A stretch of 64,000 bases of DNA from Candidatus Krumholzibacteriia bacterium (GTDB lineage Bacteria > Krumholzibacteriota > Krumholzibacteriia > JAJRXK01), in assembly GCA_041484665.1 (NCBI GenBank), contig JBGPIA010000002.1:448001-512000 (forward strand). The letters are read 5' to 3'. Position numbers and translations under genes: made by a program. Shown in pieces: positions 37,465-43,151 of this stretch. Numbering within the stretch: the stretch's first letter is position 1; each line of letters begins with the position of its first letter. The notes under the pieces were generated by a model. That model did no database searches and was not told where the DNA came from. It saw only the letters and a program-made list of their open reading frames with translations.

Positions 37465-38595
37465 CTAGCGCGGGTCCTCGCGCTCCGCGGCCTGGAAGAG
37501 CACCAGCTCGAGGCGCCCGATCAGACGCTTCGCGTCGAAGAACGCGGTCACGCGCGCCTGCGCCGCAGCCCCCATGCGCTCGGTCAGGCGCGGGTCGTCC
37601 CAGAGGGTCGTGATGGCGGTGCGCAGCGCCTGTGGGTCGCGCGCCGGGACCAGCAGGCCCGTCTCTCCCGCCACGTGAACGGAGGCGACGCCGCCCGACG
37701 CGCGGCTGGCGATTACGGGCCGGCCGCAGGCCATGGCCTCCAGCTGCACGATCCCGAAGGCCTCGCTGGACGCAGTGCTGGGGAGCACCAGCGCCGTGCA
37801 CGCGTGGTAGAGCGCACGCAGCTCCTCGTCGGACAGGTCACCCAGGAAGGTCACCTGCCCCTGCAGGCCCAACGCGGCCGTGAGCGCCTCCCAGCGCGTC
37901 CGCATCGGCCCGTCTCCGGCCACGGCCAGCGGCACGTCCGTGCCCCGCAGCGCCTGCAGCAGCACGGGCAGCCCCTTGTAATACACATGGCGGCCGACGA
38001 AGAGCAGGAAGCGCTCGCCCAGAAGCTCGTGCCAGCGCGCGACGGGCCCCGCGGGCGCCTCACGCAGCCACTGCACGTCCACGCCCAGTGGCACCACTGC
38101 GCAGCGGGCGCGGAACGGGGCGAGGGCGCGGCTGCCGTCGCGCAGCGCCTCGCTGGTCACCACGATGCGCGCGGCACGCCACAGCAGGAGCCGCAGCCAG
38201 GGCGACCACAGCCGGGCGAGCGCCCGCTGCCGCACGATGTCGCTGTGGTAGCTGATGACCAACGGGCGCGAGCCGCACAACAGCAGCCAGGCGCTCGCGA
38301 CTGCCGGATTGGGGAGGTGCAGGTGCACGACATCGGGCTGGAAGCGCCGGCGTGCCCGCCACAGCGCCAGGCCCAGACTGGGGCAGAGCGGGACCGAGGC
38401 CAGCGTGCCCCACTGCCGCAGGCGCCAGAGCGTAGCGCCGTCGCGTTGCTCGTCGCCATGGGCGGGACCGCCGGAGGCCACCACGGCCAGCACCTGATGA
38501 CCGCGCGCGGCGAGGCCGCGGCACGCTTCCTTCAGGGCCGTCTCCATGCCGCCCCGTGCCGGCGGGTAGAACTTCCCCAACTCCAGGACGCGCAT
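37465..38595 (-). CDS. GT4-family glycosyltransferase
   Basis: GKFYPPARGGME, HLHLPNP, SYHSDIVRQ, FVGRHVYYKG, SEAFGIVQLEAMACG. Confidence 0.93.
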   Translation of the reverse strand: MRVLELGKFYPPARGGMETALKEACRGLAARGHQVLAVVASGGPAHGDEQRDGATLWRLRQWGTLASVPLCPSLGLALWRARRRFQPDVVHLHLPNPAVASAWLLLCGSRPLVISYHSDIVRQRALARLWSPWLRLLLWRAARIVVTSEALRDGSRALAPFRARCAVVPLGVDVQWLREAPAGPVARWHELLGERFLLFVGRHVYYKGLPVLLQALRGTDVPLAVAGDGPMRTRWEALTAALGLQGQVTFLGDLSDEELRALYHACTALVLPSTASSEAFGIVQLEAMACGRPVIASRASGGVASVHVAGETGLLVPARDPQALRTAITTLWDDPRLTERMGAAAQARVTAFFDAKRLIGRLELVLFQAAEREDPR

Positions 38596-38775: not shown

Positions 38776-40002
38776 ATGTCCGCCAAGACCCAAGCCGCCC
38801 GCGCCAAGAGCGAGGACGTCGATCTGTTCCAGAAGTGCTACCAGTTCACCCGCGCGGCCCAGGCTCGGGCGGTAGGGCTGTACCCGTACTTCATCCCGAT
38901 CTCCGGGAGCGAGGGCACCGAGGTCCGGATCGACGGCAAGCGTCTGATCATGATCGGCTCCAACAACTACATGGGGCTGACCCACGACCCGCGCGTGCTG
39001 GAGGCGGCCGAGCGCGCCGCCCGGCGCTACGGCACCGGGTGCACCGGCAGCCGCTTCCTCAACGGCACCCTCGACCTGCACGAGAAGCTGGAGGCGGCGC
39101 TCGCCCGCTTCGTGAAGCGTGAGGCGGCGCTGGTGTTCAGCACCGGCTACCAGGCGAACCTGGGAACGATCTCGTGCCTGGTGGGCAAGGAGGAGCACGT
39201 CCTGCTCGACAAGCTGGACCATGCCAGCATCGTCGACGGGGCGCGCATGTCGGGTGGGAAGGTCGTCCGCTACCGCCACAACGACATGGACGACCTGACG
39301 GCGCAGCTGCTGAAGATCGGCGCCGACCATCCGGTGCTGATCGCCGTCGACGGCATGTTCTCCATGGAGGGAGACATGTGCCGGCTGCCCGAGCTGGTCA
39401 AGGCAGCCAAGCCGTTCCGCGCGCGCATCATGGTCGACGAGGCCCACTCCCTGGGCGTCTGCGGTCTGACCGGCGCCGGAGTGGTGGAGCACTTCGAGCG
39501 GATCGGCCAGGTGGACCTGGTGATGGGCACCTTCTCCAAGTCGTTCGCCTCGATCGGCGGGTTCATCGCCGGCGAGGCGCCTGTCATCGATTTCATCAAG
39601 CACCACGCCCGCAGCATGATGTTCTCGGCGTCGATGCCGCCGTACGCCGTGGCTACGGTGGGCAAGTGCCTGGAGATCATCCAGAACGAGCCGGAGCGCC
39701 GCGAGCGGCTGTGGGCGATCGCACGGCGCATGAAGCGGGAGCTCGCCGCGCTGGGCTTCAACACGGGCCACAGCGAGACGCCCGTGATCCCGATCATCAT
39801 CGGCGACTCGCACCTCACCTTCCGCGTCTGGCGCGAGCTGTTCGACGCCGGGGTGTTCACCAACCCGGTGATCGCGCCGGCGGTCCCGGAGCGCGGGGCG
39901 CTGCTGCGCACCTCGTACATGGCGACCCACACCGACGACCAGCTGGACGAGGTGCTCTCGATCTTTGAGGTCGTGGGCAAGCGCATGGGCCTGATCGGAT
40001 GA
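38776..40002 (+). CDS. spt: Serine palmitoyltransferase (PLP-dependent alpha-oxoamine synthase)
   Basis: GLYPYF..I...GTEVRIDGK...GSNNYMGLT, GTGCTGSRFLNGTLDLH, DHASI, DEAH, GTFSKS. Pattern resembles Bacteroides-type Spt and the gene context supports it. Confidence 0.8.
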   Translation: MSAKTQAARAKSEDVDLFQKCYQFTRAAQARAVGLYPYFIPISGSEGTEVRIDGKRLIMIGSNNYMGLTHDPRVLEAAERAARRYGTGCTGSRFLNGTLDLHEKLEAALARFVKREAALVFSTGYQANLGTISCLVGKEEHVLLDKLDHASIVDGARMSGGKVVRYRHNDMDDLTAQLLKIGADHPVLIAVDGMFSMEGDMCRLPELVKAAKPFRARIMVDEAHSLGVCGLTGAGVVEHFERIGQVDLVMGTFSKSFASIGGFIAGEAPVIDFIKHHARSMMFSASMPPYAVATVGKCLEIIQNEPERRERLWAIARRMKRELAALGFNTGHSETPVIPIIIGDSHLTFRVWRELFDAGVFTNPVIAPAVPERGALLRTSYMATHTDDQLDEVLSIFEVVGKRMGLIG

Positions 40003-41117
40003 CGTTGCGGACCGTCCCGGTCCGCGGCCGAGCGGACCTGGAGCGCTTCATCGATCTGCCGTGGAAGGTCTACGCCGGCGACCCGCACTGGGTCCCGCCG
40101 CTGCGGCTGGACGTGCGCAAGCTCCTCACCCCGGGCCAGCACCCGTTCCACGAGCACGCCGTGGTGCAGCCCTTCCTGGCGCTGCGCGACGAGCGCGTGG
40201 TGGGCCGCATCGTCGCGCACGTCAATCACGCCCACAACGAGTTCTACAAGGACGCGCTGGGCTTCTTCGGGCTGTTCGAGTGCCTGGACGACCCGGAGGC
40301 GGCCGCTGCGCTGTTCGACACCGCCTTTGCCTGGCTGCGCGAGCGCGGCCGCGACCGGGCACAGGGCCCCATGGATCTCTCCACCAACGAGGTGTGCGGC
40401 CTGCTGATCGGCGGCGAGCCCGGCCCGCCCACGATCATGATGCCCCACAACCCGCTGCGCTACGCGCAGCTCTACGAGCGCGCCGGGCTCACCAAGGCCA
40501 AGGATCTGGTGGCCCTCTATCAGGACGACCTGCGCCTGCCCGAGCGCATGGTGCGCTACGCCGAGGCGCTCCGGCAGCGGTTCGGCGTGCGCATCCGGCG
40601 CATCGACATGAAGCGCTTCAACGCCGAGATCGAGCTCATCCTGAGCCTCTACAACCGCAGCTGGGAGCGCAACTGGGGCTTCGTACCCATGACCGCTGCC
40701 GAGGTCCGCCACATGGCCAGCGAGCTCAAGTACGCCGTGAACCCGGCGGTCGTGCTGTTCCTGGAGCGGATCGCTGACGGGGAGCCGGTCGGCTTTGGCC
40801 TCGCCCTGCCCGACATGAACCAGGCCGTCCGGCACGCCAACGGCCGCCTGCTCCCCTTTGGGCTGCTCAAGATTCTGTGGCACAAGCGGCACATCGACTG
40901 CGCGCGCGTGCTGGCGCTGGCCATCGTGCCCGAGTGGCGCGGCAAGGGGCTCGATTCGCTCTTGACCCTCGAGCTCTACCGCAACGGCGCCGCGAGCGGC
41001 TACCGTCGCGGCGAGTACTCGTGGATCCTGGAGGACAACCACACTATGCGCACACCGTTGGAGCGGGCGGGAGCGCGCGTCTACCGCACCTACCGGATCT
41101 ACGAGAAGCTCTTGTGA
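39999..41117 (+). CDS. cerS: Bacterial ceramide synthase-like GNAT protein
   Basis: FIDLPWKVYAGDPHWVPPL, HPFHEH, VVGRIVA, GFFGLFEC, MPHNP..Y, NWGFVP, LPDMNQ, SWILEDN, YRIYEK. ATGA overlap with spt. Confidence 0.75.
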   Translation: MTLRTVPVRGRADLERFIDLPWKVYAGDPHWVPPLRLDVRKLLTPGQHPFHEHAVVQPFLALRDERVVGRIVAHVNHAHNEFYKDALGFFGLFECLDDPEAAAALFDTAFAWLRERGRDRAQGPMDLSTNEVCGLLIGGEPGPPTIMMPHNPLRYAQLYERAGLTKAKDLVALYQDDLRLPERMVRYAEALRQRFGVRIRRIDMKRFNAEIELILSLYNRSWERNWGFVPMTAAEVRHMASELKYAVNPAVVLFLERIADGEPVGFGLALPDMNQAVRHANGRLLPFGLLKILWHKRHIDCARVLALAIVPEWRGKGLDSLLTLELYRNGAASGYRRGEYSWILEDNHTMRTPLERAGARVYRTYRIYEKLL

Positions 41118-41229
41118 CTCTCCCCGCGCTCCCCGCCGCGAGACGGCCGCGAGCCGGACGACCACGGCCCGCCCACCCGTGGAGTGGCCGGCTGCAGCTG
41201 AGCGGGCCGCCGCAGCCGCGGCCGTTCCC

Positions 41230-42213
41230 ATGCTGAGCCTGGTCACCGGCGGCAGCGGCTTTGTCGGCAGCCACCTGGCCGAGCGCTTGAGCCAGGGCGG
41301 CGCGCGCGTGCGCTTCCTGATGCGCGGCAGCAGCGACGTGCGGCTGTTGCAGCGGCTGCCCGGCGCCGAGCTCTTCCCCCTCGATCTGCTCCAGGCCGCC
41401 CCCGACCACTTGGCCCAGGCGCTGGAGGGTGTGTCGGTGGTCTACCACCTCGCGGCCCTGGTGCGCGCGCGCAACGCGCAGGAGTACCGCCGCGCCAACG
41501 TCGAGGCGACGATCGCGCTGTATCGCGCGTTCGGCCAGGCGGCCGGGGGCGGTGGACGCTTCGTCTTCTGCTCGAGCCTCGCGGCCGCCGGGCCCGCCCG
41601 CGACGGCGCGCCGGTGACCGAGTGCAGTGAGCCCCGGCCGATCAGCGCCTACGGGCGCAGCAAGCTGGAGGCCGAGCAGCTGTTGGCTGCCAGTGCCGGT
41701 CCGCCCGTCACCTGCCTGCGCCCGCCCGCCGTCTACGGGCCGCGCGATCGGGCGATCCTGCCGCTGTTCAAGCTCGCCGCCGCCGGCTGGCGGGTGTGCC
41801 TGGGCTCGCCGCAGCGACGCTTCAGCTTGATCCACGCCGGCGACCTGGCCGCGGCGCTGGAGCAGTCCGCCGCGGCGCCGGCCGGCGTGGGCACGTTCTG
41901 CGTGGAGGACGGTGCGCCGCATGCCTGGGGGGAAATCGTCGACCTCATGGCGCGCGGCTGCGGACGCCGCGGCGTGCGCGTGGTGATTCCCGACGCCGCC
42001 GTGCACGCCGCCGCGGCGGCGGCGGAGGCGGTCGCACGGCTCACCGGCCGGCCCGCCCTGCTCACGCGCGAGAAGGCCCGCGACCTCACCACGCCCGACT
42101 GGATCTGCAGCAGCGCGGCTGCGCGCGAGCGCTTCGGCTTCGCGCCACGCTGGGACATCGCCGACGGCCTGCGCGAGACGTGCGCGTGGTACCGCGCCAG
42201 CGGCTGGCTGTGA
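41230..42213 (+). CDS. Extended SDR / NAD(P)-dependent epimerase-reductase (candidate 3-keto-ceramide or sphinganine reductase)
   Basis: VTGGSGFVG, YHLAA, SSLAA, YGRSK (YxxxK), RPPAVYGP. Confidence 0.85.
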   Translation: MLSLVTGGSGFVGSHLAERLSQGGARVRFLMRGSSDVRLLQRLPGAELFPLDLLQAAPDHLAQALEGVSVVYHLAALVRARNAQEYRRANVEATIALYRAFGQAAGGGGRFVFCSSLAAAGPARDGAPVTECSEPRPISAYGRSKLEAEQLLAASAGPPVTCLRPPAVYGPRDRAILPLFKLAAAGWRVCLGSPQRRFSLIHAGDLAAALEQSAAAPAGVGTFCVEDGAPHAWGEIVDLMARGCGRRGVRVVIPDAAVHAAAAAAEAVARLTGRPALLTREKARDLTTPDWICSSAAARERFGFAPRWDIADGLRETCAWYRASGWL

Positions 42214-43151
42214 CGCCGCGCGGAACCCGTCCGGTCGAGACGGTGCTGGCGACCTATCTGCTGGCTACGGCCGCGTTGCTGCTGGCGCGCCACAACGTCC
42301 CGCACTGGGCGTTGCTGCTCGGGCTCCACGTGGCCGTCGCCGCGGGGCTCTTGCGCCTGGCGCGCATCGCGCTGCCGATCGCGCTGGAGCCCGTTCGCCG
42401 CCTGCTGCCGCTCGCCGCCGGCCCGCTGTTCTACAAAGAGGTCGCCGTCCTCAACGATTTGATCTTCCCTCAGCGCTACTTCGACGCGTCCGTGATGCGC
42501 TGGGAGATCGCCCTGTTCGGCACGCAGCTGGCGCAGCACCTGCGCGACATCCTGCCGCGCGGCCTGCTTTCGGAGTACCTGCACCTGGCCTACTTCTCGT
42601 ACTACGCGATTCCGGTGATCTTGTGGATCTGCCTGGCGGCCCGCCGTCGCTTCGACGCCCTCGACGAGTACCTTACCGTGCTGGGTTTCACGTTCGTGAC
42701 GTGTCTGGCGTGGTTCATTGCGTTTCCAGTGGCCGGCCCCTACTACACCCTGACACCCCCGCAGCCCGGGGCGATGGGCCACGTCTTCCCCCAGCTGGTG
42801 CACGCCATGGTGCGCGCCGGGTCCTCCCAGGGCACCGCCTTCCCCAGCAGCCACGTTGCGGTGTCCGGCTGTGTGTTGGTGATGGCGGCGCGCTGGGACG
42901 GGCGAGCGTTCGCCGTGCTGTGCGCGCTGATGCCCGCGCTCGCGGTGGGCGCGGTCTACGGCGGGTTCCATTACGGGATCGACGCGCTGGCGGGCGCGCT
43001 GTGGTGCGCGCTGTGCGTGGCCGTGGGGCTGCACGTGCACCGCGCGCTGCGCGCCGACCGGCTGGACGCCCCGCCGGACGCGCCGCGCGTCAGCTCGCGG
43101 CCGGCGGAGCCGGCACCGCTGCGACGACGCCGCGGGGCAGGCCCCAGCTGA
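42210..43151 (+). CDS. PAP2-superfamily membrane protein, Aur1/IPC-synthase-like
   Basis: GTG overlaps the upstream TGA. Multiple TMs. AYFSYY, FPVAGPYY, AFPSSHV, HYGID. Confidence 0.8.
   Translation: MTPRGTRPVETVLATYLLATAALLLARHNVPHWALLLGLHVAVAAGLLRLARIALPIALEPVRRLLPLAAGPLFYKEVAVLNDLIFPQRYFDASVMRWEIALFGTQLAQHLRDILPRGLLSEYLHLAYFSYYAIPVILWICLAARRRFDALDEYLTVLGFTFVTCLAWFIAFPVAGPYYTLTPPQPGAMGHVFPQLVHAMVRAGSSQGTAFPSSHVAVSGCVLVMAARWDGRAFAVLCALMPALAVGAVYGGFHYGIDALAGALWCALCVAVGLHVHRALRADRLDAPPDAPRVSSRPAEPAPLRRRRGAGPS

Follow-up and report, generated by a model that had tools for sequence, protein, structure and literature searches.

The 64,000-nucleotide window analyzed here (positions 448001-512000 of contig C2 in G000, a 5.45 Mb Candidatus Krumholzibacteriia genome that is 93.65% complete) contains four co-oriented genes whose products resemble enzymes of bacterial sphingolipid synthesis (C2:486776-491151). 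Gene 1 (38776..40002, 408 aa) encodes an Spt-type alpha-oxoamine synthase, a pyridoxal phosphate (PLP) enzyme; gene 2 (39999..41117, 372 aa) encodes a GNAT N-acyltransferase of the bCerS/YghO family, a predicted ceramide synthase; gene 3 (41230..42213) encodes an extended short-chain dehydrogenase/reductase (SDR) of the CerR type; and gene 4 (42210..43151, 313 aa) encodes an Aur1-fold membrane phosphotransferase (PAP2_3), a predicted ceramide head-group transferase. The initial annotation of this DNA had described four co-oriented genes with start/stop overlaps at two junctions, and the sequence bears this out: all four are plus-strand open reading frames (ORFs), with an ATGA joining genes 1 and 2 (39999..40002, plus strand) and a GTGA joining genes 3 and 4 (42210..42213, plus strand). 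From these overlaps we infer that the four genes are co-transcribed. Third-position GC content (GC3) is 0.91-0.95 across all four frames, matching the expectation for real genes. The longest ORF for gene 3 begins at GTG 41179; because the resulting 17-codon extension has a GC3 of only 0.71, and because SDR homologs from E. coli, Sphingomonas, and Streptomyces begin level with ATG 41230, the latter is the most likely start, and the junction between the GNAT and SDR genes would therefore be a 112-nt gap. The GC content of the operon equals that of the remainder of the window, and thus gives no sign of recent import.

The closest solved structures to the gene 1 product are serine palmitoyltransferases (8guh/3a2b, E 7e-138), as compared with 6e-75 for Kbl, 5.5e-66 for cysteate acyltransferase, and 1e-56 for BioF. 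Its highest-scoring NCBIfam model, the best of all families, is the Bacteroidota-type Spt (SerpalmtaseCFB, NF047600; 535.8 bits). Residues of the PLP site are found at Lys255 (within GTFSKS), His149, and Asp221/His224 (DEAH, 221-224). The motifs GLYPYF, GSRFLNGT, and GTFSKS, on which an Spt-like identity had first been proposed, all occur in the protein, and the latter two are identical to those in Spt-type sequences from Bacteroidales. That identity is upheld by a phylogeny of 29 sequences, including Spt, BioF, and Kbl representatives but leaving out HemA and CapA, in which gene 1 falls within a 97/97 clade of 20 sequences containing the Spt-type proteins of E. coli, Sphingomonas, and Bacteroidales, with Kbl and BioF outside; the Spt labels in this tree were assigned from homology and gene context. 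G000 also encodes its own Kbl, scoring over the family cut-off, as well as a third alpha-oxoamine synthase paralog.

The substrate of gene 1 is nevertheless open to a different reading, in which its amino acid is alanine, glycine, or cysteate; the pathway would then yield a 1-deoxy-ceramide, a sulfonolipid, or some other amino-lipid, and gene 4 would have a different substrate. Weighing on this side, the gene 1 score is below the curated NF047600 cut-off of 640, and Spt itself can use alanine (PMC11334938). Additionally, a Priestia megaterium plasmid encodes an enzyme of the same clade, 51% identical to gene 1, that lies beside a methyltransferase and an acyltransferase rather than GNAT or SDR neighbors; clade membership is therefore no proof of substrate. 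The wide separation in E value between solved Spt and cysteate acyltransferase structures, the motifs shared with Bacteroidales Spt-type proteins, and the linkage to an Aur1-like enzyme, which makes most sense with a product bearing a 1-hydroxyl, make this reading improbable, and a serine-using Spt is preferred. As for the acyl donor, no close homolog of AasR or AcpR was found in G000 (best 26% and 31%, respectively), and the four-gene cluster, as had been noted initially and as its gene content bears out, includes no acyl carrier protein (ACP) or acyl-ACP synthetase gene. These data fit the use of either acyl-CoA, which is plausible, or a housekeeping acyl-ACP.

Other alpha-oxoamine synthases were observed in this lineage. 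The third paralog in G000 (C6:92868) lies 3 kb from the Kbl gene, scores below every family cut-off, and forms a long branch. Three genomes of the same family (G002:C5:4000-17000, G003:C79, and G005:C172), two of which lack the operon, contain a second alpha-oxoamine synthase cluster whose synthase forms a sister branch to the Spt clade. There the synthase is followed by an acetoacetate-decarboxylase-like gene, in G002 also by genes for a DAGK/YegS-family kinase and a zinc dehydrogenase, and the cluster includes a divergent CDP-alcohol phosphotransferase resembling phosphatidylinositol-phosphate synthase (PIPS-like). It possibly represents a different amino-lipid pathway.

Gene 2, originally described as a GNAT with ceramide-synthase-like motifs, proves to be a full-length homolog of E. 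coli YghO (35.5% over 378 aa, E 1e-77), and is 35% identical to an spt-linked N-acetyltransferase of Sphingomonas. The yghO gene (ECD_02850) has been named as a homolog of the Caulobacter acyltransferase (PMC9386255), and in E. coli it shares a locus with spt, acp, and genes for an epimerase and an acyl-AMP ligase. When E. coli YghO is taken as proxy for the Caulobacter protein (CCNA_01212), gene 2 lies within the published homology limits for bCerS (E <= 1e-30, coverage >= 50%; PMC11334938). It is present in a single copy in G000, and is likely a bCerS/YghO-family ceramide N-acyltransferase.

Gene 3 belongs to PF01370 and retains the GxxGxxG, Ser, and YxxxK elements. In agreement with its initial description as the reductase of the pathway, it is the top match in G000 for all five reference reductases: those linked to spt in E. 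coli and Sphingomonas (E 2e-20 and 5e-22, as compared with 1e-8 and 7e-10 for the next match), and those of Streptomyces, Rubrobacter, and Bacteroides finegoldii. In a quick tree of 29 sequences (one short row was dropped and some paralogs were cut to 345 aa), the 17 spt- or PAP2-linked SDRs form one clade with nine paralogs outside. Telling against a firm assignment, the support for this clade is weak (SH-aLRT 82), and gene 3 is only ~31% identical to the E. coli and Sphingomonas reductases, with E values (2e-24 and 4e-26) short of the 1e-30 limit of PMC11334938; its matches to the Streptomyces, Rubrobacter, and B. finegoldii SDRs are closer (2e-43, 1e-46, and 7e-31), but all three are themselves predicted enzymes. 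The data are thus consistent with, though not proof of, a CerR (CCNA_01222/epi family) function. The gene 3 protein begins at its Rossmann motif with no evident signal peptide, as do the E. coli and Sphingomonas references; a periplasmic location has been reported for Caulobacter CerR (PMC11087976). Deletion of the B. fragilis CerR homolog BF9343_4240 leads to accumulation of keto-ceramide (10.1101/2023.05.23.541633), and whether acylation or reduction comes first is a matter of dispute (PMC11087976).

Taken together, genes 1-3 very probably make the ceramide backbone. Three homologous, clustered enzymes are shared with the bacterial Spt/bCerS/CerR pathway as represented by Caulobacter crescentus, the yghO locus of E. 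coli B, and B. fragilis (BF9343_4218 and BF9343_4240). The window differs from that pathway in that its Spt resembles the Bacteroidota type more closely than the proteobacterial one, that its cluster lacks acpR, aasR, and the lptF/G paralogs, and that it adds a fourth, Aur1-like gene overlapping the reductase. The initial annotation had put the locus forward as a candidate for an undescribed system, and this does not stand for the core: clustering of spt, bCerS, and CerR genes is frequent, with Spt-like genes reported from 40 phyla (PMC11334938); the spt-GNAT-SDR order also occurs on Streptomyces and Rubrobacter records; and a bacterial Aur1-like synthase, BT_1522, has been characterized (PMC9246714). 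The three-gene ceramide core is therefore an ordinary instance of a known and widespread pathway, here in one more lineage, and the value of the locus lies in gene 4.

The arrangement of the four genes is conserved. Among 40 named loci retrieved with the GNAT, 29 contain all four genes in order, eight are cut by contig ends, and three are different. Across a sample of 151 genomes of the phylum, the GNAT was found in 74, the gene 4 PAP2 family in 72, both in 71, and neither in 76; where both occur, they are co-oriented and 1021-1177 nt apart in 66/71 genomes, a spacing that leaves room for an SDR between them, and lie on different contigs in the other five. Gene order is conserved across two phyla and linkage extends to four. 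All four genes are clustered, in a rearranged order, in Nonomuraea gerenzanensis, and the SDR-PAP2 pair is adjacent in B. finegoldii, a Prevotella, and Phocaeicola massiliensis; a search of a plasmid collection returned no Bacteroidales records but these. These counts are qualified by the incompleteness and relatedness of the genomes, which are not independent, and by the concentration of carriers in two families (63/68 genomes of family f2 and 6/8 of f1 in the 151-genome sample), which implies few independent events. Even so, the four-gene arrangement is not due to chance. A chance neighborhood, or a set of housekeeping genes (BioF/Kbl, a sugar epimerase, and a generic phosphatase), might be read from the generic automatic annotations and from the sugar epimerase model that is the best NCBIfam match of gene 3; the spt-linked E. 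coli and Sphingomonas reductases share that same best match, however, Kbl is encoded elsewhere in G000, and synteny largely refutes this reading, leaving it a very small probability. Assignment to an uncultured candidate phylum also held: the closest named GNAT relatives are three Candidatus Krumholzibacteriota records (59-60%), followed by Gemmatimonadota (44-51%) and Calditrichota (39-41%); the gene 1 protein forms a 100/97 group with a same-family genome and a Krumholzibacteriota sequence; and a nearby Rho is 76% identical to that of a same-family genome and of a Krumholzibacteriota genome, but 51-53% identical to the others matched (four of the five genomes searched gave a match).

The gene 4 product matches PF14378 (61 bits), contains six hydrophobic segments, and has a predicted structure of high confidence (pLDDT 95.6) except in its last ~25 residues. 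Yeast Aur1 (PDB 9vj4, 9ivc) is the top match to this model in both Foldseek and VIA. The His-His-Asp triad (His215, His254, Asp258) is invariant in 90/90 aligned homologs, and the spacing of 39 between the two His residues, found in 89/90, equals that of Aur1 (H255/H294/D298), with which gene 4 also shares a Ser two residues before the first His. It differs from Aur1 in its low identity (14-17%), its shorter length, and the lack of any Kei1-like partner seen. In PAP2 phosphomonoesterases (LpxE, PgpB, LPP), the C1 (K-x6-RP) and C3 (R-x5-H-x3-D) motifs supply basic residues that bind the phosphomonoester; neither the C1 pattern nor the C3 arginine was found in any gene 4 family member (0/90 for each). 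The Aur1-like PAP2 enzyme anticipated at first reading is thus recovered in triad spacing, predicted fold, and motif content, and gene 4 is probably a phospho-head-group transferase acting on ceramide.

Several observations temper this assignment. The sequence match of gene 4 to Aur1 is marginal (E 0.05), LpxE scores just 3 Z units below Aur1 against the gene 4 model, and gene 4 has no match at E <= 0.05 to NF052609, the model for BT_1522; 63/90 of its homologs match that model weakly (best E 3e-8). Among 41 related genomes (G000 and G001-G040), 15 of which carry the operon, none exceeds the NF052609 cut-off of 480, with weak C-terminal matches in five, none near the cut-off. Gene 4 might instead be a lipid phosphatase or phospholipase, acting on ceramide-1-phosphate, sphinganine-1-phosphate, phosphatidylinositol phosphate, or a carrier lipid, such that the operon would end in free ceramide or, through the adjacent family 4 glycosyltransferase (GT4; 37465..38595, minus strand, PF00534), in a glycosylceramide. 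The family is annotated as "membrane-associated phospholipid phosphatase," a weak match to an undecaprenyl-diphosphate phosphatase model is found in 57/90 members, the structures ranking after Aur1 are LpxE and PgpB, and the GT4 gene adjoins the operon in six genomes. The absence of the phosphomonoester-binding residues throughout the family (90/90), the alignment of Aur1 over 257 residues as compared with 163 for LpxE, and the presence of the GT4 gene away from the operon in most carriers and in non-carriers render hydrolysis unlikely. A head-group transferase remains the favored assignment.

If gene 4 transfers a head group, phosphatidylinositol (PI) is, by elimination, the likely donor. Inositol-1-phosphate synthase was found in 15/15 operon carriers and 38/41 genomes overall, and a PIPS-like gene in 15/15 and 41/41, in all cases below the model cut-off; the PIPS-like gene is the sole CDP-alcohol phosphotransferase detected in 9/15 carriers. 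PgsA-type matches occur in 19/41 genomes and Psd in 2/41, and among the carriers only G033 has them; for the other 14/15, which are draft genomes, this means only that neither gene was found. The single PIPS-type transferase in nine carriers and the lack of PgsA or Psd matches in 14 are the grounds for considering PI the likely donor. In G000, the PIPS-like protein scores 151 (archaeal) and 124 (bacterial) bits on PI-phosphate synthase models, as compared with 28 on PgsA, its best solved matches are PI-phosphate synthases, and a PgpA-family gene is present; the sole two-domain phospholipase D protein looks more nuclease-like than cardiolipin synthase-like. The inositol genes are scattered, with inositol-phosphate synthase at C2:3-1523, the PIPS-like gene at C4:91023, and PgpA at C2:667553, and none is near the operon. 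At the start of C2 the inositol-1-phosphate synthase gene is cut off, and its end turns up at C27:42560-42883, at the end of that contig; this is an assembly break, not a split gene.

The case for inositol is weakened on several counts. The inositol genes are class-wide and also found in operon-less relatives, so that their presence does not tie them to the operon, and relatives without the operon also lack PgsA. The PIPS-like protein in G000 is below both cut-offs (151 of 180 and 124 of 170) and might accept a different alcohol. Three more CDP-alcohol phosphotransferases are encoded in G000, making other donors possible; one (C1:707446) has human choline/ethanolamine phosphotransferase 1 as its closest solved structure (E 6e-7), and another adjoins genes for a nucleotidyltransferase and a PLP enzyme. 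The one Gemmatimonadales operon carrier checked has PgsA, PssA, and PIPS together. We consider the chances of inositol being the head group in the Krumholzibacteriota lineage to be even. By family, PgsA-type genes were found in 0/9 f1 genomes (and not in G000), 0/7 f2, 1/6 f3, and 18/18 of the other five families; LpxC is present in G000; and Krumholzibacteriota relatives, with or without the operon, may build their membranes on PI. At C16:4000-6800 of G000, a CDP-alcohol phosphotransferase gene forms a three-gene run with those for a HisC/CobD-like PLP enzyme and a nucleotidyltransferase; the run has the look of a module for an amino-alcohol-phosphate head group.

Under the proposed pathway, the Spt-type enzyme would form 3-ketosphinganine by condensation of serine and a long-chain acyl thioester (probably acyl-CoA); the GNAT would N-acylate the long-chain base and the SDR would reduce the 3-keto group with NAD(P)H, in either order. 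His254 of gene 4 would then accept the phospho-head group of a glycerophospholipid, with release of diacylglycerol, and hand it on to the 1-hydroxyl of ceramide; His215 would serve as the acid/base, in line with the mechanism proposed for Aur1. Supply of the donor would fall to the unlinked inositol-1-phosphate synthase, PIPS-like enzyme, and PgpA-family phosphatase. The succession of Spt, bCerS, reductase, and Aur1-like head-group enzyme, as outlined in the initial annotation, was consistent with every sequence, synteny, and structure comparison run. The full reading of a phosphosphingolipid operon that makes dihydroceramide and then inositol phosphoceramide, in a PI-based membrane, has barely better than even odds.

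Two characterized or partly comparable bacterial systems bear on the head group. BT_1522 of B. thetaiotaomicron is an Aur1-like synthase of inositol phosphoceramide (PI-dihydroceramide, PI-DHC), the loss of which leaves the ethanolamine form (PE-DHC) unchanged (PMC9246714). It shares with gene 4 its Aur1-like character and predicted reaction, and G000 encodes proteins corresponding to the inositol-phosphate synthase, PIP synthase, and PgpA-family members of the BT_1522-1526 cluster. In contrast, gene 4 has no NF052609 match, and whereas BT_1522 lies with inositol genes, gene 4 lies with ceramide genes. The PAP2 protein encoded behind a CerR-type SDR in B. finegoldii (WP_237923849.1) forms the same pair with its SDR as gene 4 does, is homologous to gene 4 over its full length (28%, profile E 9e-45), carries the FPSSH and HYxxD motifs, and likewise has no NF052609 match; the difference is that spt and bCerS lie elsewhere in those Bacteroidales genomes. 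No function for this PAP2 gene was found in print.

These relatives are one argument for an alternative in which the ceramide pathway is unchanged but gene 4 transfers phosphoethanolamine, phosphocholine, another amino-alcohol phosphate, or the head group of any phospholipid at hand. The clearest cultured gene 4 relatives lie directly behind CerR-type SDRs in B. finegoldii, Prevotella, and Phocaeicola, and the loss of BT_1522 alone removes PI-DHC while sparing PE-DHC (PMC9246714); a gene 4 relative in B. thetaiotaomicron, if present, is therefore unlikely to be an inositol enzyme. The additional CDP-alcohol phosphotransferases of G000 point the same way. Against this, PIPS-like transferases are the only ones detected in most carriers, Psd is rare among the 41 genomes, and the Bacteroidales proteins are distant enough to leave room for a switch of donor. 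A head group other than inositol is accordingly a minority possibility, if a slightly stronger one than hydrolysis, and inositol phosphoceramide is retained as the preferred product.

All Bacteroides species tested produce ethanolamine phosphoceramide (PMC10191378), which made up 26% of the lipid signal in negative mode for a strain of B. fragilis (PMC12132519). A 2022 search gave no candidate for its synthase (PMC8791184) and a 2023 review names none (PMC10191378); no assignment of an ethanolamine phosphoceramide (PE-DHC) synthase gene was found in the literature since 2022, in a search that left out most subscription papers. The gene 4 family is not described in the literature located, and is the sole uncharacterized part of the operon. 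What is new here is the PIPS-only CDP-alcohol gene content of 9/15 carriers, which points to a PI donor and an inositol phosphoceramide product. More tentatively, and on balance doubtfully, gene 4 may represent a second family of synthases for bacterial sphingolipid head groups, widespread, co-inherited with the ceramide reductase, and switching donor by lineage. Its Krumholzibacteriota members would then make inositol phosphoceramide, with PI as the sole detectable CDP-diacylglycerol-derived phospholipid, and its Bacteroidales member would be the missing synthase of ethanolamine phosphoceramide, one of the main sphingolipids of gut Bacteroides. Should this be true, a fungus-like pairing of PI and inositol phosphoceramide would exist in a lipopolysaccharide-bearing bacterium. 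By linking an Aur1-fold family to ceramide genes, the operon points to a single gene in a gut bacterium that is tractable. It would also make inositol phosphoceramide an expected lipid marker of an uncultured group from soil and sediment, and its compactness suits it as a cassette for producing phosphosphingolipids in a laboratory host.

Variation was observed around gene 4 and its position. On the Streptomyces plasmid, spt-GNAT-SDR is followed by a condensation-domain protein, and on the Rubrobacter plasmid by a lipoteichoic acid synthase-family protein; the gene in fourth place seems to have a tailoring role and to vary among loci. Seven f2 genomes, G030 among them, have two gene 4 family matches, with the second copy away from the operon; in G030 (C6:160301) it sits between two extended SDR genes. 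In G033, the operon carrier with PgsA and Psd, an apparent TAG lies inside the gene 4 match (C27:5218-6114).

Downstream of the operon, an MFS transporter ORF converges on gene 4 and shares 62 nt with its 3' end (43090-43151), and there is therefore no room for a separate terminator between them. Upstream, the divergent GT4 gene points away from the operon and is a possible accessory. It is head-to-head with spt in G000 and in five genomes of one sister genus, lies elsewhere in the genome in others, and is also present in three relatives without the operon; relatives of this GT4 (E <= 1e-45) occur in 9/9 f1 and 7/7 f2 genomes and in 0/24 others. Among the GT4 enzymes that it matches weakly in the PDB is the PI mannosyltransferase PimA, and it could glycosylate an inositol lipid.

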